Assembly (NCBI GenBank): GCA_037200965.1
Contig: JBBCGK010000001.1
Span: 224,001-288,000, forward strand
Reading direction: 5' to 3'
DNA: 64,000 nucleotides
Source: a bacterium
GTDB taxonomy: Bacteria; Patescibacteriota; Minisyncoccia; Phycocordibacterales; Phycocordibacteraceae
The notes below the pieces were generated by a model. The model saw nothing but the letters and a program-made list of their open reading frames with translations. It had not been told where the DNA came from and made no database searches. The translations under genes were made by a program, and so were the position numbers. This document shows, piece by piece, positions 8,792 to 20,089 of this stretch (the stretch's first letter is position 1; each line of letters opens with the position of its first letter).

Positions 8792-9037
8792 ATGATAAAA
8801 AGCGGTACGAAAAAGAACATTTCTTTTCTTGCGGTGGAGTTCGACCGCGAAGAAGACGGCCGCTGGATCGCGGAAATTCCCAAGCTCCGGGGAGTTATGG
8901 CATATGGCGTGACACGACGGGACGCGCTCCAGAAAGTGTATGCGGTCGCGCTACGCACGCTTGCGGACGGCGTGGAGCAAGGAGCTCTCTTCACTCCGGT
9001 ATCCCGGCTCTTCGGGCATGGAGTGGCGCGCCGTTAA
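8792..9037 (+). CDS. hicB: HicB-like antitoxin (UPF0150 family)
   Basis: 81 aa, HicB/UPF0150-like core (WIAEIPKLRGVMAYGVTRRDALQKV), overlaps and precedes hicA. Confidence 0.6.
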   Translation: MIKSGTKKNISFLAVEFDREEDGRWIAEIPKLRGVMAYGVTRRDALQKVYAVALRTLADGVEQGALFTPVSRLFGHGVARR

Positions 9038-9227
9038 AGCGGGACGGGTACTTCGGGCGCTTGGCGCGGGCGGGTGGCGTATAAAGCGCCAGCGGGGATC
9101 GCACAGAATACTCGCGAAACCGGGCCATGCCGACGTTACGTTCGCGTTCCATGACCGCGAAGAAATCGGCCCGAAAATGCTTGCGAAAATCGCCAAATAC
9201 ACCGGCCTTGCGCCTGATGATTTGTAG
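9018..9227 (+). CDS. hicA: HicA-family mRNA interferase toxin
   Basis: GWRIKRQRGSHRILAKPGH...FHDREEIGPKMLAKIAKYTGL matches HicA/YcfA signature; start set at internal Met overlapping hicB by 20 nt. Confidence 0.65.
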   Translation: MEWRAVKAGRVLRALGAGGWRIKRQRGSHRILAKPGHADVTFAFHDREEIGPKMLAKIAKYTGLAPDDL

Positions 9228-10440: not shown

Positions 10441-10845
10441 ATGAAAGCCTACGCCGGGTTTAAATTCAAGGAGGATTATAGCGATCGGGCATTCATAGAA
10501 AGCATCTGCCGCGCTATTGAAAGTGCGGGAATCAAGACGGTCGTGATGGTCAGGGACTACGAGGGATGGGGGCAGACACGTATCGCTCCCGGGGACATGA
10601 TGCCGATCGCGTTTCGCGCTATCGATGACTGCGACATTGTTATTATCGAGTTTTCGGAAAAAGGTACCGGTCTTGGCATCGAAGCAGGGTACGCCTATGC
10701 GAAAGGGAAGCCGGTGCTGGTCATCGCCCGGGAAGGCGCGGAGATATCGGAAACCCTGGAAGGCATCGCATCACGCGTCATGTTCTATCGGAAACCCGAA
10801 GACATACAACGATCCTTGGAAGACTCTGGTATCATGGACGCATGA
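10441..10845 (+). CDS. nucleoside 2-deoxyribosyltransferase-like protein
   Basis: 134 aa; Rossmann-like pattern DIVIIEFSEKGTGLGIEAGYAYAKGKPV typical of the N-deoxyribosyltransferase family; start at ATG 10441 with 4-nt overlap into the next gene. Confidence 0.5.
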   Translation: MKAYAGFKFKEDYSDRAFIESICRAIESAGIKTVVMVRDYEGWGQTRIAPGDMMPIAFRAIDDCDIVIIEFSEKGTGLGIEAGYAYAKGKPVLVIAREGAEISETLEGIASRVMFYRKPEDIQRSLEDSGIMDA

Positions 10846-11441
10846 TCGCCGTGGACGCCGAAATGAGCGGGCTTGATTTCGAGAAGCATTCGATACTCTC
10901 GATCGGCGCGCTCGATCTCGATGAGCCGGAGAACCGTTTTTACGGGGAATGCCGTGCGTGGGACGGCGCGCATATCGAGACGGATGCGCTCGTCGTAAAC
11001 GGCTTTACGGTTACCGAGGCCACGGATCCCAGAAAGCAGGGGGAGGGCGAACTTGTGCAGAGCTTCATAGCATGGTCGCTCTCGATCGCCGAACGGACGC
11101 TTGGCGGACAGAATTGCGCTTTCGACCGCATGTTCATCGAGGCCGCGTGCAGGCGCAGCGGCATCGAGTGTCCGTTCGCGCACCGCGTCATCGATGCCCA
11201 TAGCCTGACCTGGCTGCATATGCTGAAGCGGGGGCTTACGCCGCCCATCGACGAGAAGCATCGCCATTCGGCTATCAACCTTACGTTCGCTCTTTCGTAT
11301 TGCGGCGTTCCGGAAGAACCGAAACCACACAACGCGCTTACCGGAGCACTCTGCCATGCGGAAGTGATATCCCGTATCGCGTATACTAGGAAACTGCTGC
11401 CGGAATTCGCGCAGTACGACATACCATGGCTCACGAACTGA
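10842..11441 (+). CDS. DEDDh-family 3'-5' exonuclease (DnaQ-like)
   Basis: Exo I motif IAVDAEMSGL, Exo II region, Exo III H-x4-D (HNALTGALCHAEV). Confidence 0.7.
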   Translation: MIAVDAEMSGLDFEKHSILSIGALDLDEPENRFYGECRAWDGAHIETDALVVNGFTVTEATDPRKQGEGELVQSFIAWSLSIAERTLGGQNCAFDRMFIEAACRRSGIECPFAHRVIDAHSLTWLHMLKRGLTPPIDEKHRHSAINLTFALSYCGVPEEPKPHNALTGALCHAEVISRIAYTRKLLPEFAQYDIPWLTN

Positions 11442-12175
11442 ACCCTCCCGCCTCCGGCGGCCAAGCGCACCCCCTGCTTACGCGCCTCATGACCGAGGGG
11501 CATGCGACGATGCCGCACAAGGACGACCGGCCTCCGCTCGTCTGCAAGCCCGCGCGCATCGAGCCGTGGCGTATCTTCCGGATTATGTCCGAGTTCGTCG
11601 AAGGATTCGAGATATTGAAGCGCTACGGGCTCGCCGCGAGCATCTTCGGGACCGCGCGCGCGAGCTTCGAGCATCCGGTCTATCAGGAAGCGGAAGAACT
11701 TGCGGCGAAGCTCGCGAAGCGCGGTTTCGCCATTATCACGGGCGGGAGCAAGGGCGTGATGGAGGCAGGTAATAAGGGTGCATTCCAGGCGGGAGGCGCT
11801 TCCGTAGGGCTCAACATCCACTTGCCGGAAGGCCAAGGCGACAACGCCTATCTTACCGAAAAGTTCGAATTCGAACATTTCTTCGTGCGCAAGGTGATGC
11901 TCACGTTCGCGTCCGAGGTCTATATTTATTTCCCCGGAGGTTTCGGCACCTGGAACGAATTTTTCGAGATCGTGACGCTTATACAGACCAAGAAGATCAG
12001 GCGCATCCCCGTCGTGCTGGTCGGCAAAGCATATTGGACTCCGCTTACGGAGCTTATCCGCGCGCACCTTTACAAGGAGCACAAGGCGATAGACGAGAAG
12101 GACATGGATATTTACAAAGTGGTGGACTCGGTCGACGAGGCGTACGACTATATCGTGAACCACGTCACCTGCTAG
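11426..12175 (+). CDS. LOG-family protein (nucleotide 5'-monophosphate N-glycosidase / lysine-decarboxylase-like fold)
   Basis: ITGGSKGVMEAGNKGA...PGGFGTWNEFFEIVTLIQT, the TIGR00730/LOG signature; true start may be internal Met (about 11510 or 11585). Confidence 0.75.
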   Translation: MAHELNPPASGGQAHPLLTRLMTEGHATMPHKDDRPPLVCKPARIEPWRIFRIMSEFVEGFEILKRYGLAASIFGTARASFEHPVYQEAEELAAKLAKRGFAIITGGSKGVMEAGNKGAFQAGGASVGLNIHLPEGQGDNAYLTEKFEFEHFFVRKVMLTFASEVYIYFPGGFGTWNEFFEIVTLIQTKKIRRIPVVLVGKAYWTPLTELIRAHLYKEHKAIDEKDMDIYKVVDSVDEAYDYIVNHVTC

Positions 12176-12176
12176 T

Positions 12177-12329
12177 ATGTCTCTCGACTACAGCCAGAAG
12201 CGCCTGGTCTCCGCCCCGTTTCGCCGGAAAGGGAAGGGGAGCCAGCGCCTTCGCCTCTACGCCTTCCTTACGGGCCTTCTGAGCACTCTGGTTTCGCTTG
12301 CGACCGTCATAGTTACGCTTGAAAAATAG
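12177..12329 (+). CDS. small single-TM peptide (50 aa), paralog 1
   Basis: MSLDYSQKRLVSAPFRRKGKGSQRLRLYAFLTGLLSTLVSLATVIVTLEK; not in ORF track (<60 aa); conserved motif YAF.TG..STL.SL shared with the next ORF. Confidence 0.35.
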   Translation: MSLDYSQKRLVSAPFRRKGKGSQRLRLYAFLTGLLSTLVSLATVIVTLEK

Positions 12330-12382
12330 CGAACTGTGGACAAACAGACCTTGGGGCTCTGCGCACGCTATTCTTATAAGAT

Positions 12383-12517
12383 ATGAGCACCAAACACGGA
12401 CACCGCAAGCATTTTTCGTTCATGCGGAATCTCGAGGTCTATGCGTTCTGGACGGGCTTCGCGAGTACGCTCATAAGCCTCGTGCAGGTCGTTATTATCG
12501 CGAGCAACAAGGGATAG
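12383..12517 (+). CDS. small single-TM peptide (44 aa), paralog 2
   Basis: MSTKHGHRKHFSFMRNLEVYAFWTGFASTLISLVQVVIIASNKG; tandem paralog of 12177..12329. Confidence 0.35.
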   Translation: MSTKHGHRKHFSFMRNLEVYAFWTGFASTLISLVQVVIIASNKG

Positions 12518-12524
12518 GCCCGTA

Positions 12525-12716
12525 TTGACAAATATCAATAGGTGCTCTAAGGTTCTATCCAGCCCTGTCCCTTGCTTCTTTAATCTCAGGGCCAAAAGAG
12601 GAGTATGTGCCGGCACAGCAATTGAATACGGCCTCATCGCAGCGGGGATCGCAGTTGCGATCATCGCCGCGGTTCACCTCATCGGACAAGGGTGCCATGC
12701 TTGGGGCTGGTGCTAA
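12525..12716 (+). CDS. Flp/Fap-type pilin (start codon uncertain)
   Basis: G|TAIEYGLIAAGIAVAIIAAV is the Flp prepilin processing/hydrophobic core signature; only in-frame start is TTG at 12525 giving an atypical 30-aa Cys-containing leader. Confidence 0.5.
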   Translation: MTNINRCSKVLSSPVPCFFNLRAKRGVCAGTAIEYGLIAAGIAVAIIAAVHLIGQGCHAWGWC

Positions 12717-12799
12717 CGTTCCGGGTTGAAGAACTCGCAAGGCCATCCCGCCCCCGTCGCTTCACAGCCTCGGGGGCACGCCTTTTGATACGTAGTACA

Positions 12800-13048
12800 A
12801 TGGGGAACATGGACTTCAACAAAATGCTCAAGTTGTTTTGCGAGAGCGTGAGCATCGGGTTTGCTAAGCATGGTTTCTATTTCGGCTTCGCCTCAGGCGC
12901 GAACCAGTCGGCATTTGCCGTACCTCCCGAGGTCGCCAAAGGACTGGTCGAAGGACTTGCGCAGAAGGTCGCTGAATACGAAAAAGCCTTCGGCCCCATC
13001 GACACCTCACACAACCAGGTCGGCATCCAGAGCCCGCTCGGGAGATAA
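12800..13048 (+). CDS. DUF3467-like small protein
   Basis: 82 aa from internal Met; PPEVAKGLVEGLAQKVAEYEKAFGPI resembles the DUF3467 C-terminal pattern. Confidence 0.4.
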   Translation: MGNMDFNKMLKLFCESVSIGFAKHGFYFGFASGANQSAFAVPPEVAKGLVEGLAQKVAEYEKAFGPIDTSHNQVGIQSPLGR

Positions 13049-13051
13049 TTT

Positions 13052-13483
13052 TTATCTGAAGTTCGCCCACGGACAGTCCTTTGTTTCCGTACCTGGCACT
13101 AGTTCCTGCGCGCCAATTACGAGCGCGTGGTCCTTCCAGAATTCGATTGTTTCCGTTGAGTCGCGACCGTCGCCGAAAGGGAACGGGGGAGTTAGACGTC
13201 CGATATAGGTCGTGAAGATATCGTATTCGTTATCTCCCGTCTTATCCATGCGAAGTACAATAGTAGTCGCGGGGCTGGGTTCATGGCCGCGCACAAAACG
13301 GCTATACCGGTCGCGATTGGGACGCTTCGCATAAAAGATATCGTCTGCTTCCGTCGTTTCTACGCAGTCCTGAATACCGATTGCTCTTCCGAATTCTATT
13401 TCAAGGCGCGGCGACGGTCCATGCGCGACAACCTGCGGCAGCGCCTCTTTCACAAGCTCCAGGAGATCCGGAACATCCTTCAA
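13052..13483 (-). CDS. hypothetical protein
   Basis: 143-aa ORF, no recognisable family. Confidence 0.35.
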   Translation of the reverse strand: MKDVPDLLELVKEALPQVVAHGPSPRLEIEFGRAIGIQDCVETTEADDIFYAKRPNRDRYSRFVRGHEPSPATTIVLRMDKTGDNEYDIFTTYIGRLTPPFPFGDGRDSTETIEFWKDHALVIGAQELVPGTETKDCPWANFR

Positions 13484-13692
13484 TCGACCGCCTTCTGCCG
13501 TTTGGCGGCGTTCGCATAGAGGATGATGTTCTGGTGACCAAGGACGGGCACAGAAATCTTACAAGGCTATATATCTAGGGAGGCCGGAATATATATGTTT
13601 ATCGTAAAGTAAACATTGTGCGCACTATAAGGAAAACAAAGGCTTTTTAAGGAGATCTTGCCCGACTAGACATTCCCGGCTTCTCTTCCCCG

Positions 13693-13830
13693 CTAGTCGC
13701 CCCACAAAATTGCGCCTTCGGAATTTATGGTTGTGACGGATACTTTTCCGACGGCATCGGTTAGCCGCACTTCCCCGGGCAGGGGAACTTTCCCGGTCAG
13801 GGGAGCGAAGACGATCTCAGAAAAATATGA
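13693..13830 (-). pseudogene. orphan 3' fragment of a type IV pilin gene (duplicate of 15921..16058)
   Basis: about 125 nt at about 85 percent identity to the 3' end of the pilin gene at 15921..16379; encodes ...PLTGKVPLPGEVRLTDAVGKVSVTTINSEGAILWGD; upstream part of the ORF is unrelated low-GC sequence. Confidence 0.6.
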
Positions 13831-13864
13831 AGAAGAGAGAAGTCCCCTGCCCTCCGCGAAACAT

Positions 13865-14401
13865 ATGAGCCTGACATTGCTAGTTGGTGTTATATTGGCC
13901 TGGATTATGGGAGTCTTTTCGCCTGAGGAGTATTTCGGCGCTATCAGGAACAATATACGCGGGAAACGCTACTTATACGCAACAATCAGGATATTTGCCG
14001 GTCTTGGCTCGCTGCTTATCTTTATTGGCGCGATTGTCGGAGCCTTCCATGCTTTTAACATATTTAACATACAAGTACACCAGAATAGAGTCGAGCTAGA
14101 CTCTTACTATCGCAAAACTACTGAATTAACGAGTACGGATGGCACCTATACGACGACATTTCGAATCTTTGTTCACACTCCTCCATACTGGACTCCTCCA
14201 AATCCGAAAAATCTGGAAGCAGGTTTTAACTTTTACTGGCTAGGTAACCCTCAGGCTGAATGCAGTGACCCAGCCTCAAAAGGATTCTCAGAAAAATATG
14301 CAGGCTCTTATTCATCCAGTACCAGGGAATACGAGATGACGTGCAGGACCTATAGCCCGGTTCTCGACAACGGGCGGCTGATCATGATCAGGGAAAACTA
14401 G
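13865..14401 (+). CDS. hypothetical membrane protein (low-GC cassette)
   Basis: 178 aa from internal Met; two N-terminal TM helices; region is markedly AT-richer than flanks. Confidence 0.35.
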   Translation: MSLTLLVGVILAWIMGVFSPEEYFGAIRNNIRGKRYLYATIRIFAGLGSLLIFIGAIVGAFHAFNIFNIQVHQNRVELDSYYRKTTELTSTDGTYTTTFRIFVHTPPYWTPPNPKNLEAGFNFYWLGNPQAECSDPASKGFSEKYAGSYSSSTREYEMTCRTYSPVLDNGRLIMIREN

Positions 14402-14417
14402 CGATAGGCCTCCCGAT

Positions 14418-14792
14418 TTAATACCCTGATACTGATCGCTGGGCCGTTTCGTAGTCGAAATCGCATAGTCGGATATCCCCTTCATACGCAGACAAGAGCG
14501 TGGCTGGCGTGCTGTCCGGGCTCTGTGCGCGCTTGAAGGTCGCAAAGGACAGCGCTATGTCCTGGGTCATCGAATTGCAGGAGGTACCGCTGTCATCCTC
14601 CACAAGGCACCAGTACTGCATGGCAGATGTGAATTTTGCCGCGGCTTTGACCGTACAGGCACGGTAGTCATTGTCTATATGGGCCCGCTTCTGGGAGTTG
14701 GCGGTATTCACATACCAACTGATCACCAAGATGACACAGATCAGTATCGCACCGTTGAGAACAAATATCTTATGAGTATTGAACCAGTTCAT
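14418..14792 (-). CDS. hypothetical membrane-anchored Cys-containing protein (low-GC cassette)
   Basis: start at Met21 (MNWFNTHKIFV...), one TM helix, several Cys. Confidence 0.35.
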   Translation of the reverse strand: MNWFNTHKIFVLNGAILICVILVISWYVNTANSQKRAHIDNDYRACTVKAAAKFTSAMQYWCLVEDDSGTSCNSMTQDIALSFATFKRAQSPDSTPATLLSAYEGDIRLCDFDYETAQRSVSGY

Positions 14793-14973
14793 AACGCAAG
14801 GTTGTTTTAGTACCAATAAACGCCCCAGAGCACCGCCCCGAATGCCAGACAACCTTGCGGGAAGCCAACACCGGGACGGTGCTTTGGGTGCAAGGTTGTC
14901 CTGTATGGGGGGTGTTCGTTATGAGCCTACTTCCCTCCCCTGGAGGGGTCAAGGGAGGGAACTGCACGGAACG

Positions 14974-15003
14974 AAAAAGACCGCCCGTACGGGCGGTCTT
15001 TTG
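14974..15003. terminator. bidirectional intrinsic terminator
   Basis: AAAAAGACCGCCCG-TAC-GGGCGGTCTTTT, flanked by A and T tracts; downstream of the minus-strand pilus/zeta operon. Confidence 0.55.
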
Positions 15004-15010
15004 CTGCGAC

Positions 15011-15190
15011 TTATTTCCGCTTTCCCTGCTCCATCACTTTACGCTGTTCCGCATTTGCCTCCCGCAATACCTGGCGCACCACTTTAACCTTGTCGGCAGA
15101 GGATCGTGAAAAGAACGCGGAGAAGTCGTTGTCCGCATGTCCCTTTTTCGCGCCGGACGAGCCAAAAAAGCCTCTTATGAAGTTGGTCAT
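15011..15190 (-). CDS. small basic protein (59 aa) translationally coupled to zeta-toxin-like gene
   Basis: ATG overlaps the zeta-like stop in an ATGA arrangement; MTNFIRGFFGSSGAKKGHADNDFSAFFSRSSADKVKVVRQVLREANAEQRKVMEQGKRK; no internal stops; below ORF-track size cutoff. Confidence 0.3.
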   Translation of the reverse strand: MTNFIRGFFGSSGAKKGHADNDFSAFFSRSSADKVKVVRQVLREANAEQRKVMEQGKRK

Positions 15191-15933
15191 ATAAGTACTG
15201 TATCTAGTTCTTCCACAGAGTAGCGTCCCCTGGTAAGGCGGTCAAGTTCCACGGAACTAACGTTCAAGTGAACATCCTCAGTGCCGTCTTCATAGTCTTT
15301 TATGAGCACGTTGAGCTCGACCGCCTTGCCAAACTGCTCTTTGACGGCCACGACATTTTCACGCGCACCCTTGAAAGAACGTATGAAGACATCCCTGGAC
15401 ACATGCCGTGACTCTGTCACCTCGCGAACTTTAGTAAACTCCCAGGCCTTCACCGGATCCTGAAATACGAACCATATTTCAACTAAGCGGCTCCGGGACA
15501 GCGAACGGCTGATATTCTCCGGGGCATTTCCGTAAGCGAACGTACCATCAAGTATGCAGTTGAGGTTCTTTTCGAGGGCATAGTCGTATAAGATGTTCAC
15601 CCCTTTATTCGCGGCGCTTTGGAAGAGGTGGGCATTTGCACCTGTATATCCGTCACAGAGCATGCGTATGTCGTCCGCATCTATGCGTATCGGCATATCC
15701 TTAAACCGTCTCATAAATCCTTTTGACACCTCAGTTTTGCCCGCCCCCGGCGAACCGGCCATAAACAGCGAAACCGGCTTATTCACGGGGCGACACGCGT
15801 CGGGGTGCGCGAACTTCTCTATGATTTCTTTTCTGTGGCTCTTAACAAAAGCAATCGCATCCCGTTCAATACGAGTTTCTTCTTCGGTCATCCCGGATAT
15901 CCTAACACTCTGTAGGCCTGTCACTTTCCCCAT
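15187..15933 (-). CDS. zeta-toxin-family P-loop kinase-like protein
   Basis: Walker A MAGSPGAGKTEV followed by IDADDIRMLCDGY (zeta/PezT D.D..R....Y pattern); 248 aa; overlaps pilin stop by 13 nt. Confidence 0.6.
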   Translation of the reverse strand: MGKVTGLQSVRISGMTEEETRIERDAIAFVKSHRKEIIEKFAHPDACRPVNKPVSLFMAGSPGAGKTEVSKGFMRRFKDMPIRIDADDIRMLCDGYTGANAHLFQSAANKGVNILYDYALEKNLNCILDGTFAYGNAPENISRSLSRSRLVEIWFVFQDPVKAWEFTKVREVTESRHVSRDVFIRSFKGARENVVAVKEQFGKAVELNVLIKDYEDGTEDVHLNVSSVELDRLTRGRYSVEELDTVLI

Positions 15934-16379
15934 AAAACCGCACCTTCTGAATTGATGGCTGTAATGGATATCTTCCCGGCGGCATCGGTTAACCGCACTT
16001 CCCCGGGCAGGGAAACTTTCCCGGTCAGGGGAGAGAAGACGACTTCGGCAAGTCCGGAGCGCAGGGCATCCGACTTCCCTTCCAGGATAATGTCTTCGCC
16101 CTCATGCCGTGAGAAGTAGCTGCCGCCCTCGAAAATGACGAAGCCGGAATCTCCGACGTAGACGCCATGCGCGCTGGGGCCGGTACAAACTTTCGCGGCA
16201 CACACGCCGTTAAGCGCTTGCGAGCGGGCATGCAGAAGCGCGATCCGAATCGTATCCTCGTCGTTTCTCTGAAGTGTCCTTTGATAGCTCTCGAGTCCGA
16301 CGATAAGCCCGATCGCGGAGATCGTGGCAACAAGCGCTATAACGATTAACAGTTCGACGAGCGTGAAGCCGCGAGGCAT
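15921..16379 (-). CDS. type IV pilin / pseudopilin with prepilin N-terminal cleavage-methylation motif
   Basis: MPRGFTLVELLIVIALVATI class III signal (G|FTLVELL), 152 aa. Confidence 0.75.
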   Translation of the reverse strand: MPRGFTLVELLIVIALVATISAIGLIVGLESYQRTLQRNDEDTIRIALLHARSQALNGVCAAKVCTGPSAHGVYVGDSGFVIFEGGSYFSRHEGEDIILEGKSDALRSGLAEVVFSPLTGKVSLPGEVRLTDAAGKISITAINSEGAVLWGK

Positions 16380-16381
16380 GG

Positions 16382-17446
16382 TTAGGGCGCAAGGTTCTGT
16401 GTGATGCCGTAGATCGGCGTGATTATCGCGAGCGCGACGAATCCCACGATAAGGCCCATCACGATCATGAGTACGGGCTCGATAAGGACCGCGATGCTCT
16501 TTGAGAGTTCGTCGAGCTCTTCCTCGTAGAAGTCCGCGCAGTACAAGAGGCTTTCCGAAAGCGAGCCGGTCGATTCTCCGACCGAAAGCATCTGCGCGAG
16601 CATCGGCGGGAACAGGAGCGGCTCAAGCGCGAACGCCGCCGAAACCTTTTGTCCGGTCGACACGAACTCCGCCATCTCCCCGCATGCTTTCCGGTATGCG
16701 CCGCTCCTTGTCCCGAGCGCCGCAAGTTCGACTGCGCGCACGACGCCTACCCCGCTCCCCAAGAGCGTCCCGAGCGTACGGGCCAGGCTCGCGACCGCGT
16801 ATTCCCGAAAGAGCGTTCCCAGAAGCGGAATCCGCAGGAGCGCGCGTCCGGCCGCAAGCCTTATGGACGGCACGCGAAGCAAGAGAACCGCCGCAGCCAC
16901 AACCGCCATGAGGGCGAGCAGGATATATAGCCCATAGCGCGCGAATGACTCGCTGAGAGAAATAAGAAGCCTGGTCGAGAGCGGAAGCGCTGCATGAAAG
17001 CCCTTGAATACCGGAATGATCTTCGGAAACACGTAGAGCGCAAGCAGGGTCGTGATGCCGAGCGTCGCCGCCACGATGATCGCAGGATACAGAAGCGCTC
17101 CTATGACTTTCCTTCGGAGTGCGCGCTCCTTCTTGATCGACTGCGAAAACCGCTCAAGATGCTCCGGAAGCGACCCGCTCGTCTCCCCCACTTCGACCAG
17201 ATGTACGCCGAGATCGCCGAATACGGAGCGGAACGCGGCGAGACCCGCGGAAAGAGGGCGTCCGGCCGCGACCGTCTCCCGGAGCGTATGCAGGATATGG
17301 GATGAGGAATGCGTCCGCGCCTCTTCGCCAAGAAGCGAGAGCGCGGCGACTATCGGCACGCCCGATCGGAGCATGAGCGCGAGGCGTTTCGCGAAGAGCA
17401 TCTGCTCTTCCTTGCCGAAGAGGAGGAGATACGGCCGCTTATGCAT
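16382..17446 (-). CDS. type II secretion / type IV pilus platform protein (GspF/PilC family)
   Basis: two T2SSF-like repeats, three TM segments, 354 aa. Confidence 0.8.
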   Translation of the reverse strand: MHKRPYLLLFGKEEQMLFAKRLALMLRSGVPIVAALSLLGEEARTHSSSHILHTLRETVAAGRPLSAGLAAFRSVFGDLGVHLVEVGETSGSLPEHLERFSQSIKKERALRRKVIGALLYPAIIVAATLGITTLLALYVFPKIIPVFKGFHAALPLSTRLLISLSESFARYGLYILLALMAVVAAAVLLLRVPSIRLAAGRALLRIPLLGTLFREYAVASLARTLGTLLGSGVGVVRAVELAALGTRSGAYRKACGEMAEFVSTGQKVSAAFALEPLLFPPMLAQMLSVGESTGSLSESLLYCADFYEEELDELSKSIAVLIEPVLMIVMGLIVGFVALAIITPIYGITQNLAP

Positions 17447-18602
17447 GGCGCATGCGGACTACCTCCTCGATCGTTGTCACGCCCTTCCATGCCTTGCCGA
17501 ACCCGTCACGGTGCATGGGAAGCATTCCGGCGGCCGCGGAAAGCTCGCGAAGCTCGTCAAGGGATGCCTTGCGGAGCACCGCCTCGCGAAGCTCCGGCGT
17601 CATTGCAAGCACTTCGAATATCCCCGTGCGGCCGCGATACCCCGTGCCTGCGCAGCTCTCACAGCCTCTTCCCCGGAAACTCGCAGCCTCGTCCGGCAAT
17701 CCTTCCGGAGAAAAGACATGCGCGAGGCTTTCCCGCTCCGCGCTTGTGAGCTCGCGACGCTCCCGGCAGTCGGCGCATATCGTGCGCACCAGCCGCTGCG
17801 CAATTACGAGACTTACGGTCGAAGCCAGAAGATATGGCTCTACCTTCATATCGAGAAGACGCGGGATCGCCGTCGGCGCATCGTTCGTATGAAGGGTCGA
17901 AAGAAGCAGATGGCCCGTGAGTGCGACATTGGTCGCCATTCCCGCAGTCTCGATATCCCGTATCTCCCCCACCATGATGACGTCGGGATCCTGGCGAAGC
18001 ATGCTCCTGAGCCCGTTTCCGAATGTAAGGCCGGTGCGCGCGTTCGCCTGTATCTGGTTGATGCCCGGGATCGAATATTCGACCGGATCCTCGATCGTAA
18101 GGATGTTCACTTCCCTTCTATTAAGAAGAGCAATGAGCGCATAGAGAGTCGAGGTCTTTCCGCTTCCGGTCGGTCCCGTGACGAGAATCATGCCGTGAGG
18201 CCGGGCAAGCGCCGTCTTGATGAGATCCGCGTGCGCGGTGGAAAACCCGAGACTTTCAAGCGGGCCCGGTTCCCTCGGAGCAAGGAGGCGCAGGACCGCG
18301 TTCTCTCCGTAATAGGTTGGCGCGATCGATACGCGGACATCGATCTGCCCTGACCTGCCGCCAAAGACAAAACGTCCGTCCTGCGCCGCCTGGTGCTCGT
18401 CGGTACGGAGTCCCGCAAGTATCTTTACGCGCGCGATAAGCTCGCCATGGAGCGTGCTCGGGACTTCGTGAGCGTCAGCCAGTTCCCCATCCACGCGGAA
18501 ACGGACGACTAGCTTTTCCTTCTGCGGATCGAGATGTATATCTGAAGATCCGCGCGCGTGCGCGGAAGCGAGCAGCTCCTCGACCAAGGCGATCGCCGAC
18601 AT
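17439..18602 (-). CDS. type II/IV secretion ATPase (GspE/PilB family, short form)
   Basis: Walker A GPTGSGKTST, Asp box LRQDPDVIMVGEIRD, His box LVLSTLHTNDA, tetracysteine CADC...CESC. Confidence 0.85.
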   Translation of the reverse strand: MSAIALVEELLASAHARGSSDIHLDPQKEKLVVRFRVDGELADAHEVPSTLHGELIARVKILAGLRTDEHQAAQDGRFVFGGRSGQIDVRVSIAPTYYGENAVLRLLAPREPGPLESLGFSTAHADLIKTALARPHGMILVTGPTGSGKTSTLYALIALLNRREVNILTIEDPVEYSIPGINQIQANARTGLTFGNGLRSMLRQDPDVIMVGEIRDIETAGMATNVALTGHLLLSTLHTNDAPTAIPRLLDMKVEPYLLASTVSLVIAQRLVRTICADCRERRELTSAERESLAHVFSPEGLPDEAASFRGRGCESCAGTGYRGRTGIFEVLAMTPELREAVLRKASLDELRELSAAAGMLPMHRDGFGKAWKGVTTIEEVVRMRHA

Positions 18603-18639: not shown

Positions 18640-19596
18640 CTAAACCGAGAAATTAGAAACGGAATAGAGGTCGTCTTCCGGAGCAGGAGGAGTCGCTGGC
18701 ATGGCATCGACGTGCGTGGTATTCGCCGCAAGCGGCGCGGGCGCCTGTGCAGCGGCGTCTTTTGCGGCGAGCGCGGCGACGATGCTCGAAAGATCCTCGG
18801 AAGAAAAGAAATCGATCATAAGCCGCCCGCCTTTGTCGTTCGATTCGATCATTACGCGGGTGCCGAGCGCTTCGGTAAGCGCGCGCTCGATGGTCACCAT
18901 CTCGGGTGTCTTGCGGTGATAGCGCTTCACGCGGTCGGGTGCGATATTGCGCGCGACCTGCTCCGCGGCGCGCACTGACATCTTCTTGAGCACGATCTCC
19001 TTGAAGAGCGTCTCCTGCTCGTCAGGCTTCCCTGCGAGCATGAGAATGGTGCGCGCGTGCCCTTCGGTCATTTCCTTGTCCACGATCGCCTGCAGCATAT
19101 GTTCCGGCAAATTAAGAAGCCGTACCGTGTTCGAGACATACTCCCGGCTCATGCCGATCTTCGCGCCGATCTCCGAATGCGAAAGGCCGAATTCTACGAG
19201 CTGCTCGAGCGCCTTCGCGCGGTCGACGGCATTAAGATCCTCGCGCTGCAGGTTCTCAATGATGGCGAGCTCGAGCTTCATGCGGTCGGTCTCCTCCCCT
19301 ACCCTGATCACGACCGGCACTTCCTTAAGTCCGATGAGCTTCGAGGCCCGAAGACGCCGCTCGCCCGCGATGAGCTCGTAGACGCTTGCGAGACCGCCTT
19401 CGGGCTTCTCGATCTCTTTCCTAGTTACCGTAAGCGGCTGGAGGACGCCATACTGGCGTATGGATTCGGCGAGCGCCTTGAGGCGCGCTTCGTCGAATTC
19501 CTTCCGCGGCTGATACGGATTCGGACTTATCTTATCGACCTCCACCCAGAAGATGGAATCGTACTTGGTCGGTTCGGCGAATTTCGAGTCGTGCAT
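18640..19596 (-). CDS. parB: chromosome partitioning protein ParB/Spo0J
   Basis: ParB box ISPNPYQPRKEF...VLQPLTV...ELIAGERRLRASKLIG, HTH; start trimmed to Met108 because the longer ORF runs through a tRNA gene. Confidence 0.85.
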   Translation of the reverse strand: MHDSKFAEPTKYDSIFWVEVDKISPNPYQPRKEFDEARLKALAESIRQYGVLQPLTVTRKEIEKPEGGLASVYELIAGERRLRASKLIGLKEVPVVIRVGEETDRMKLELAIIENLQREDLNAVDRAKALEQLVEFGLSHSEIGAKIGMSREYVSNTVRLLNLPEHMLQAIVDKEMTEGHARTILMLAGKPDEQETLFKEIVLKKMSVRAAEQVARNIAPDRVKRYHRKTPEMVTIERALTEALGTRVMIESNDKGGRLMIDFFSSEDLSSIVAALAAKDAAAQAPAPLAANTTHVDAMPATPPAPEDDLYSVSNFSV

Positions 19597-19658
19597 GATG
19601 AAAAAATAATACCATGCGCGTTGCGGCAAAGCCCAAGCGCGGGTAGGATGCATGGAAA

Positions 19659-19739
19659 GCCGGGGTGGCGAAATGGTATACGCAAGGGATTCAAAACCCC
19701 TCGCCGCAAGGCATGAGAGTTCAAGTCTCTCCCCCGGCA
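19659..19739 (+). tRNA. tRNA-Leu (anticodon CAA)
   Basis: acceptor GCCGGGG/CCCCGGC, D-arm with GG, anticodon loop TTCAAAA, long variable arm, T-arm GAGAG-TTCAAGT-CTCTC, discriminator A; no encoded CCA. Confidence 0.75.
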
Positions 19740-19765
19740 CAGCGTGGATAGTGGATAATGGTAGG

Positions 19766-20089
19766 ATGGTGGGTATGAAAGAATTAATGGAACGTATCGC
19801 GACGGTCTGGGAATGCGACCCTTCCCGGTACCCGGAACTTGCAGGCATGGATACTACCGAAAGGAAGAACTTTCTGATCAAACATTCGGTCCTCCACATA
19901 ACCAAGACCGCAGGCAAGCTCGCCGCCCTCTGCGAGGACTACGACCATACCAAACAGACCTCTCCGGAAGCGGAGGAAAAACTGAAGGCGGCGTCCGTAA
20001 AGATGTTCATCAACGCGCTCAAGCTCGCCGAAGAGGCAGGGTTAAGCGCGGACGAATTGCTTGAGCGCGCGCCCGGATACGTAAAATAA
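19766..20089 (+). CDS. MazG-like nucleotide pyrophosphohydrolase family protein (putative)
   Basis: about 107 aa all-helical; weak resemblance to small MazG/NTP-PPase domain; start could be 19766 or 19775. Confidence 0.35.
   Translation: MVGMKELMERIATVWECDPSRYPELAGMDTTERKNFLIKHSVLHITKTAGKLAALCEDYDHTKQTSPEAEEKLKAASVKMFINALKLAEEAGLSADELLERAPGYVK

Follow-up and report, generated by a model that had tools for sequence, protein, structure and literature searches.

A zeta-toxin-family kinase with a small downstream partner next to a pilin gene relic in a patescibacterial type IV pilus operon

Gene content of the locus

A gene for a kinase of the zeta-toxin family and a gene for a 59-amino-acid (aa) protein were found directly behind the pilin gene of a short type IV pilus operon in a bacterium of the Phycocordibacteraceae (Patescibacteriota). 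The stretch analysed, called the window below, comprises 64,000 nt (assembly GCA_037200965.1, contig JBBCGK010000001.1, positions 224,001 to 288,000), and all coordinates given here are those of the window. The pilus operon, the kinase and its partner are read on the minus strand; they are followed by two small genes for putative membrane proteins and by an orphan fragment that repeats the 3' end of the pilin gene, about 2.1 kb separating the two pilin 3' copies (Table 1). The window sequence was also identical to part of contig JBBCBH010010897.1 (GCA_037975565.1), and a second assembly, GCA_015655515.1, contained the same 12.5 kb at 99.94% identity with the repeat and the layout included, which shows that the arrangement is not an assembly artefact.

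An original prediction, made from the letters of the DNA alone, had described the segment between the pilin copies as a low-GC toxin-like cassette inserted into the pilus operon. The base composition of the segment agreed with this description, being 0.50 for the kinase gene, 0.52 for the 59-aa open reading frame (ORF), 0.515 for orf124 and, as the lowest value, 0.45 for orf179, compared with 0.61 for gspE and gspF, 0.57 for the pilin gene and 0.589 for the whole window. The two small membrane or cysteine-containing proteins of that description were recovered as orf124 and orf179. No match for orf124 was obtained in Pfam, NCBIfam, PADLOC or PHROG, nor in phage records by tblastn, and orf179 gave at most sub-threshold family matches and none in phage records by tblastn.

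The strong bidirectional terminator of the original prediction was likewise found as a perfect palindrome just beyond the partner gene. Folded as RNA it reached -23.7 kcal/mol (z=-4.67) and was followed by UUUUU; it is predicted to end the pilus-kinase-partner transcript and to be usable from both strands. No promoter-like or terminator-like site was detected between the pilin and kinase genes. As these are separated by a gap of just 29 nt, and as the terminator lies past the partner gene, the kinase pair is probably read through from the pilus operon. An Rfam scan of the window returned tRNAs only.

Table 1. Features of the pilus operon, the kinase-partner pair and the flanking DNA (window coordinates).
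Feature	Position	Strand	Basis or remark
parB	beyond gspE, upstream	-	precedes the pilus genes on the minus strand
gspE/pilB-type assembly ATPase, first pilus gene of the operon	17439..18602	-	Pfam T2SSE E=1.4e-113
gspF/pilC-type platform protein	16382..17446	-	Pfam T2SSF E=1.2e-52
Intact 152-aa prepilin, GspH/FimT-like minor-pilin type	15921..16379	-	Pfam N_methyl E=3.8e-6; NCBIfam IV_pilin_GFxxxE
Repeat copy A (3' end of intact pilin gene)	15928..16051	-	repeat search
Zeta-toxin-family P-loop kinase, 234 aa	15187..15891	-	Pfam PF06414; longest ORF extends to 15933
59-aa helical partner, no known family	15011..15190	-	start overlaps kinase stop (ATGA)
Perfect 14+14 nt palindrome with A4/T5 flanks, predicted intrinsic terminator	14975..15002	.	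repeat search and RNA fold
orf124, one transmembrane helix and Cys-containing domain	14418..14792	-	ORF list, NCBI gene call
orf179, two transmembrane helices and ~110-aa domain, converging on orf124	13862..14401	+	ORF list, GC
Orphan pilin 3' fragment (repeat copy B, 13700-13823)	13693..13854	-	frame and stop codon kept
orf143, flanking gene past the relic, GC 0.54	13052..13483	-	phrog_23674 E=8e-14

Family, fold and catalytic residues of the kinase

The kinase belongs to the zeta-toxin family by profile, by fold and by its catalytic residues. It matched the Pfam family Zeta_toxin (PF06414) over profile positions 11-189 of 199 with an E-value of 9.9e-30 and a score of 103.9 bits, the curated cut-off being 22.3 bits, and a profile of its own family in turn found PezT (E=1.2e-5). 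An AlphaFold2 (AF2) model built on 23 homologs was obtained with a pLDDT of 88 and a pTM of 0.84. When this model was compared with the PDB by Foldseek, ranks 1-18 were all occupied by PezT, zeta, AvrRxo1 or ng_zeta1 (TM about 0.6-0.7, E 8e-9 to 1e-5), with adenylate, UMP/CMP and polynucleotide kinases far behind at about 0.45. The kinase therefore groups with zeta toxins and not with housekeeping kinases, as had originally been suggested. Only weak matches to it were found in PHROG.

Zeta and PezT are defined by a Walker A motif GXXGXXKT and by an Asp (D67 in zeta, D66 in PezT) that deprotonates the substrate (PMC6362051). In addition, R158 of zeta and R157 of PezT serve both catalysis and antitoxin binding, and a GTXR motif binds UDP-N-acetylglucosamine (UDP-GlcNAc, or UNAG) (PMC6362051). 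The kinase carries the Walker A pattern as GSPGAGKT, aligned to GQSGAGKT (residues 39-46) of PezT with K52 in the place of K45; D73, in the sequence RIDADEIR, aligned with D66 of PezT in IIDGDSFR, and R156 aligned with R157 of PezT at the end of the hidden Markov model (HMM) alignment. GSPGAGKT, D73, R156 and R162 were invariant among the 23 homologs. The GTXR motif is incomplete, reading D115-G116-T117-F118-A119, so that Gly and Thr are retained and the Arg is replaced by Ala, as it is in at least 90% of the 23 homologs; in the copies examined from phages and a plasmid, and in other distant ones, the motif reads G-T-F-S. UDP-GlcNAc 3'-kinase activity can therefore not be assumed, and the substrate, or the mode of its binding, probably differs from that of zeta and PezT.

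The kinase gene had also been described as overlapping the stop codon of the pilin gene. This overlap proved to be an artefact of ORF calling, the 248-aa protein being merely the longest reading. All 23 aligned homologs and the NCBI gene call (P0001, 234 aa) begin at MTEEE, at position 15891, where the start codon is preceded by AGGA; this is probably the true start, in which case the two genes do not overlap.

A conserved small protein encoded downstream of the kinase

The start codon of the 59-aa ORF overlaps the stop codon of the kinase gene in the sequence ATGA, which agrees with the translational coupling described originally. Homologous loci were collected from one-genome-per-species collections, which yielded 80 further loci, almost all of them labelled as Patescibacteria lineages (81 with the present one), and the same 4-nt overlap was seen at 59 of these 81. 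At the further loci, the ORF after the kinase gene encoded 47-66 aa. A partner profile built from 50 small ORFs gave a match directly downstream of the kinase at 80 of the 81 loci, the single miss being a locus cut by the end of its contig. Furthermore, the pair was present on all 19 IMG/VR viral contigs that carried a kinase homolog (19/19), and on the Shewanella putrefaciens plasmid pSA70-4, where its members are annotated as 'zeta toxin family protein' and 'hypothetical protein'. From this co-occurrence, the 59-aa protein is an obligate partner of the kinase. The original prediction had noted that no epsilon-like antitoxin lies upstream and had offered the downstream ORF as a non-canonical partner; both points were upheld, no epsilon or PezA gene being present upstream.

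Partner proteins ranged from 47 to 71 aa across homologs and shared the motif DFSxFF...EKxK...ANxxQ. A moderately confident AF2 model (pLDDT 73.5) placed helices at residues 3-10, 22-28 and 31-58. The protein had no Pfam family and no sequence match in the PDB, epsilon, PezA and Arc1 included, and no DNA-binding domain, through which type II antitoxins often autoregulate, was detected in it. Kinship with epsilon, PezA or Arc1 was accordingly rejected as having no PDB or Pfam sequence support. One homolog, P0147 (319 aa), contains the kinase and then the small-partner motif (...SKLSSKEKKKIIKYAINKTNKEQ...) in one polypeptide, which is either a natural fusion or a frameshift or read-through artefact. 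Full-text literature searches found no paper on this kinase-partner pair, nor one tying zeta toxins to the Candidate Phyla Radiation.

Distribution and genomic context of the pair

An exhaustive profile search gathered the kinase family into 285 clusters (50% identity) at E<=1e-30. Its distribution is patchy, a pattern scan giving at least 146 matches, as a lower bound, among 185,579 species genomes. No neighbouring gene family was common to more than 6 of the 81 loci, and the upstream genes were not conserved. Recurrent neighbours included type I restriction-modification HsdM/HsdS, a YgjP-like protein, a DNA methylase and a Panacea-domain antitoxin, as well as housekeeping genes. gspE or gspF was found within 7 kb of the kinase at none of the 80 other loci, and a pilin gene within 3 kb at one; nor did the phage and plasmid copies have pilus genes nearby. 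The pilus association is therefore incidental, and a general one was ruled out. The remark of the original prediction that co-transcription of such a kinase with gspE-gspF-pilin is unusual thus holds for a one-off arrangement but carries no functional meaning for the family.

Taken over all these settings, the pair is a compact, self-contained unit travelling among genomes and mobile elements. It has the general traits shared by type II toxin-antitoxin modules, namely small co-oriented coupled genes, patchy spread, variable context and carriage on mobile elements. Two of the viral copies may be described individually. In a P2-like genome (L107, 6409-7312; IMG/VR), the pair lies between replication gene A with a methylase and the portal/terminase genes, a position that we take to be the tin/old anti-phage hotspot; in another phage (L090, 8001-8943; IMG/VR), it stands beside an ANT/Rha antirepressor and a CII regulator.

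Short direct repeats flanked the pair at 29 of the 81 loci. At one of them, in Wolfebacteria (L037, 606-10180; MGIT01000002.1), and likewise at L069, L079, L031 and L049, intergenic units recur every 1-3 kb at 84-98% identity, each unit consisting of a terminator hairpin (AAAACGAGGCC...GGCCTCGTTTT), a promoter-like sequence (TTGGTTACATAATGGGGTGGAATTTGGTAAGAT) and then GGAGG. The L037 repeat occurs in six copies in 11 kb, and the pair sits between these terminator-promoter units. An integron or attC-like cassette was ruled out, since the repeat is a stereotyped terminator-promoter intergenic unit and not an att site specific to the element. Such stereotyped units, which border the pair at many loci, could favour the shuffling of cassettes through recombination.

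The repeated pilin 3' end

The original prediction had reported that the pilin 3' end recurs at 13693-13830. In the repeat search, the two copies aligned over 124 nt without gaps at 84% identity; the blastn alignment covered 115 nt with 86% identity (E=3e-33 to 9e-35). In a MAFFT alignment the block of similarity ended at the stop codons of both copies. The duplication is thus present as described, at E of about 1e-33 and in both assemblies. No third copy was found in the 64-kb window by blastn.

At the protein level, 40 residues were 80% identical, and the BLAST alignment spanned 52 residues, back to position 13854. The nucleotide copies differed at 21 of 123 positions, distributed 9/1/11 over the three codon positions, with a dN/dS of 0.28 over 41 codons, and the amino-acid changes were conservative (V/I, S/A, A/T). 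This pattern indicates that both sequences diverged while encoding a working protein. The orphan is therefore read as the relic of a once-functional, diverged pilin and not as an att-type or target-site duplication in decay. Copies 84% identical with coding-type differences are not near-identical att repeats, and no recombinase domain was found in any ORF from 12177 to 15933; an integrative element with an attL/attR duplication of a gene 3' end was rejected on these two grounds, there being no integrase or recombinase and the repeats having diverged as coding sequence.

The orphan keeps its frame and stop codon over 52 codons but represents the C-terminal part only. It lacks the N-terminal signal/methylation motif, which was not found in any frame between 13693 and 14420, and a hidden second full pilin in that interval was excluded on this basis. 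The intact pilin, by comparison, has an N-terminal G/FTLxE cleavage-methylation motif and a hydrophobic helix, and a motif scan identified it as the sole true class III-signal pilin in the window. A second pilin gene of another kind may lie about 1 kb from the relic: a 63-aa ORF at 12525-12716 (+) shows a pilin motif of the Flp/Fap kind (TAIEYGLIAAGIAVAII; Pfam Flp_Fap, E=1.3e-9) and would be an unrelated, Tad-type pilin gene.

Homologs of the intact pilin were scarce, just two distant ones (41% and 32% identity) being found among 5.8e9 proteins. The block retained in the orphan is the region conserved with these two homologs (P0122 and P0123), the most conserved part of the domain. On the contig of the 41% relative, T2SSE-T2SSF-pilin is followed by more pilus genes, among them a second N_methyl pilin, and more distant operons also bear several pilins after gspF. 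GspF relatives in metagenomes were at most 34% identical. Neither an empty site nor a donor locus was found by the pilin homolog search or by the metagenome GspF scan. The original prediction had looked to relatives for a second intact pilin at this place; the operon of the 41% homolog includes a second pilin after the first, and no close relative was found. Of its two suggestions on the origin of the repeat, the replacement of a second pilin gene is the part that the data favour, whereas recombination through pilin 3' homology was not shown, given the codon pattern, the dN/dS and the lack of a recombinase.

The relic also bears on the gene call for orf179, whose longest ORF, from 13727, runs antisense across it and is called by NCBI as a protein of 224 aa. 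The same frame is open on the strand opposite each pilin 3' copy, at 15952-16119 (+) (MMAVMDIFPAASVNRTSPGRETFPVRG) and at 13727-13861 (+) (MVVTDTFPTASVSRTSPGRGTFPVRG). The antisense stretch in the 224-aa call is less likely to be truly coding than to have arisen as a side effect of the pilin codons.

Neighbouring genes

Beyond the relic, orf143 had 'hypothetical protein' homologs (31-34% identical) in 20 phage records, mostly of jumbo phages of Erwinia, Yersinia, Pseudomonas and Xanthomonas, and the lower-GC stretch may for this reason reach from about 12180 to 15920. No family match was obtained for two neighbouring ORFs, paralogous to each other, of 50 aa (12177-12329, +) and 44 aa (12383-12517, +). 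In each, a basic N-terminus is combined with a hydrophobic helix at the C-terminus (...YAFLTGLLSTLVSLATVIV / ...YAFWTGFASTLISLVQVVI); they are candidates for small membrane peptides or for toxins resembling type I. At 10441-12175 (+) lie three overlapping genes with the look of a conflict or signalling operon centred on nucleotides. The first (10441-10845) encodes a nucleoside 2-deoxyribosyltransferase/TIR-like protein, the second (10842-11441) an exonuclease of the RNase T type and the third (11426-12175) a SLOG/LOG 'lysine decarboxylase-like' protein. At 8792-9227 (+), some 4.5 kb away from the cassette, an 81-aa ORF is followed by an ORF with a HicA_toxin domain (Pfam), probably forming a HicAB toxin-antitoxin pair. 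This content suggests that the interval from 8.8 to 15.9 kb is an accessory or defence-rich stretch. On the other side of the pilus operon, a tRNA-Leu(CAA) gene at 19659-19740 (+), encoded on the strand opposite to parB, directly precedes it; as the tRNA gene falls inside the longest parB ORF (18640-19917), the true start of parB is placed near 19653.

Discussion

The closest parallel in gene order is AvrRxo1-Arc1, a zeta-fold kinase toxin with its small antitoxin encoded directly downstream, in DNA of low GC with host-variable flanks (PMC4938570). The pair described here resembles it in the zeta-type kinase fold (Foldseek 4z8t/4z8u, TM 0.60), in having the kinase gene first and a short helical ORF directly after it on the same strand, and in its lower GC and varying flanks. 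The differences are considerable, however. AvrRxo1 has about 420 aa, carries an additional N-terminal region, plays a role in type III secretion and uses NAD as its substrate, whereas the present kinase has 234 aa. Arc1 has about 98 aa (81-121) and the pattern KExFD(x25-27)(Y/L)ExxYY, while the partner, of some 55-65 aa, has its own motif and no double Tyr, and no sequence match was found between the partner and the Arc1 PDB chains at E<=10.

Epsilon/zeta and PezA/PezT, the UDP-GlcNAc 3'-kinase systems, share with the kinase the PF06414 domain, the P-loop, the catalytic Asp and the equivalent of Arg157/158; they provided the best structural matches, and they too are carried on mobile elements. 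In those systems, however, the antitoxin gene lies upstream and its product is a three-helix bundle, to which PezA adds a helix-turn-helix (HTH) domain, whereas nothing conserved lies upstream here, the gene preceding the kinase being that of the pilin, and the partner is downstream. Their GTxR is G-T-F-A in the present kinase, and sequence identity is only 12-15%. The antitoxins of epsilon/zeta and PezAT block the nucleotide site (PMC10532202; PMC6362051). The fold is known to tolerate changed substrates (UDP-N-acetylmuramic acid (UNAM) 4'-OH, or unknown), absence of the residues that bind UNAG, and altered antitoxin arrangements, as seen in ng_zeta1 of Neisseria, PezT-Mtb Rv0366c and EzeT of E. 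coli (PMC5923241; PMC6362051). The P0147 polypeptide recalls the cis antitoxin of EzeT. Unlike the partner gene, the antitoxins of these three are upstream or N-terminal, and none of them has the small-protein family seen here.

As regards the landing place, in Pseudomonas aeruginosa variable accessory genes after pilA act on pilin, and the pilin locus is a site of replacement. The present locus is similar in that genes exchanged horizontally and specific to the strain occupy the DNA 3' of the pilin gene. It differs in that the cargo is toxin-like and has no pilus link in other genomes, and in that a truncated pilin relic was left behind.

The reading that we lean towards, with moderate confidence, combines a separable, mobile kinase-partner module, presumed to behave as a toxin-antitoxin system, with a scar of gene replacement at the pilin. 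The kinase would phosphorylate an essential nucleotide-linked metabolite and arrest growth when free; the small partner would bind it and cover or block the active site, and the tight translational coupling would keep the two in step, so that the pair would act as a toxin-antitoxin module of the addiction or abortive-infection type. We infer this behaviour by analogy to epsilon/zeta and PezAT and especially to AvrRxo1/Arc1, whose antitoxin is likewise downstream. In this genome, the module may have arrived together with the two small membrane-protein genes and landed immediately 3' of the pilin of the gspE-gspF-pilin operon. Its arrival would have cost a second pilin sequence, be it a tandem paralogue or a previous allele, its first ~100 codons, with the last 41-52 codons surviving as the orphan, and the link to the pilus transcript would then be an accident of the landing place and not a pilus function.

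Several observations weigh against this proposal or limit it. Kinase identity of 40-68% across many Patescibacteria lineages is unusually high conservation for a toxin, the GTxR motif is incomplete, and no PADLOC model matched the kinase. Toxicity, partner binding and the kinase substrate are points that we infer for the subfamily as a whole. As no close relative with or without the insertion was found, a tandem paralogue, allele replacement and homology-driven integration cannot be told apart, and the count of pilin copies covers the 64-kb window of the contig, with further copies possible elsewhere in the genome.

Two other accounts concern the repeat. In the account that the original prediction had put forward, the cassette entered by homologous recombination via the pilin 3' homology, the copies being substrates or products of the event, through a Campbell-type integration of a small circle with a pilin 3' segment or through a double crossover with a pilin-flanked donor. 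Direct repeats do bracket the low-GC segment exactly, with a similarity that ends at both stop codons, a single crossover between chromosomal and incoming pilin 3' ends would yield this geometry, and the type IV pilus/competence machinery would make DNA uptake plausible. However, homologous recombination would find little to work on in 124 nt at 84% identity, no recombinase gene is in or beside the segment, and flanking by gene 3' ends is seen at none of the family's other loci, the flanking repeats elsewhere being generic terminator-promoter units. The coding-type divergence, moreover, means only that there were two different pilin genes, which a simpler deletion or replacement explains equally well, and we consider entry by either route unlikely. 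It is far harder to see the orphan as a silent, pilS-like pilin cassette donating sequence by gene conversion to the C-terminus of the expressed pilin. The intact frame and stop codon over 52 codons and the conservative substitutions would suit this, and the N-terminal part is missing as it is in silent cassettes. Such cassettes come as several promoterless partial copies of the variable regions, however; the orphan is a single copy in 64 kb, it covers the most conserved part of the domain and not a variable region, orf179 begins at its edge or inside it on the opposite strand, and there was no evidence of exchange between the copies.

The function of the pair may also be construed differently. 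Its high conservation at a fixed length of about 234 aa, the 285 clusters, the absence of the UNAG-binding Arg and a partner without an antitoxin-family signature would all suit a metabolic or regulatory kinase that is not toxic, that has a small protein at its side as regulatory subunit or substrate, and that is kept for a cellular role in Patescibacteria. The patchy distribution, the lack of a conserved genomic context, the presence on temperate phages and a plasmid, the fact that the closest folds are all toxins and a kinase GC content foreign to this genome speak against such a role; we hold it to be improbable, yet the conservation of the kinase and the signature-free partner keep it a live alternative. 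By contrast, a pilus accessory factor that modifies, for example, the pilin or a sugar-nucleotide serving to decorate it, with a functional co-transcription, is very improbable. The 29-nt distance from the pilin stop with no terminator between, the shared operon terminator and the precedent of pilin-adjacent accessory genes in other bacteria would fit it, but the pilus genes that are missing around the 80 other loci, with one pilin as the exception, and around the phage and plasmid copies do not, and the module keeps its own partner everywhere.

A bolder form of the toxin-antitoxin proposal is offered here tentatively, as possible though not the likelier outcome: the pair might represent an undescribed, reversed-order branch of zeta toxin-antitoxin systems, with a new antitoxin family and a substrate other than the UDP-GlcNAc 3'-OH, spread over Patescibacteria, proteobacterial plasmids and temperate phages. 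The conserved aromatic DFSxFF helix could then plug the nucleotide site as epsilon does, and the pair may serve in abortive-infection defence, as one of few such systems in ultra-small Patescibacteria.

For this genome, the findings point to the minimal pilus operon of a reduced bacterium having been remodelled by incoming DNA, with the loss of one pilin gene and the attachment of a selfish or defensive module to the pilus transcript. The locus itself is modestly interesting; the kinase-partner family, as far as its sequences indicate, is a new variant of zeta toxin-antitoxin systems. As a coherent two-gene family it extends the zeta-toxin theme with a new partner protein, a reversed gene order and a changed substrate pocket. 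If the kinase is toxic, the family would offer a new antitoxin fold, a new metabolite target and a candidate phage defence for organisms with few known systems of this kind; otherwise it would represent a conserved kinase of unknown role in Patescibacteria.

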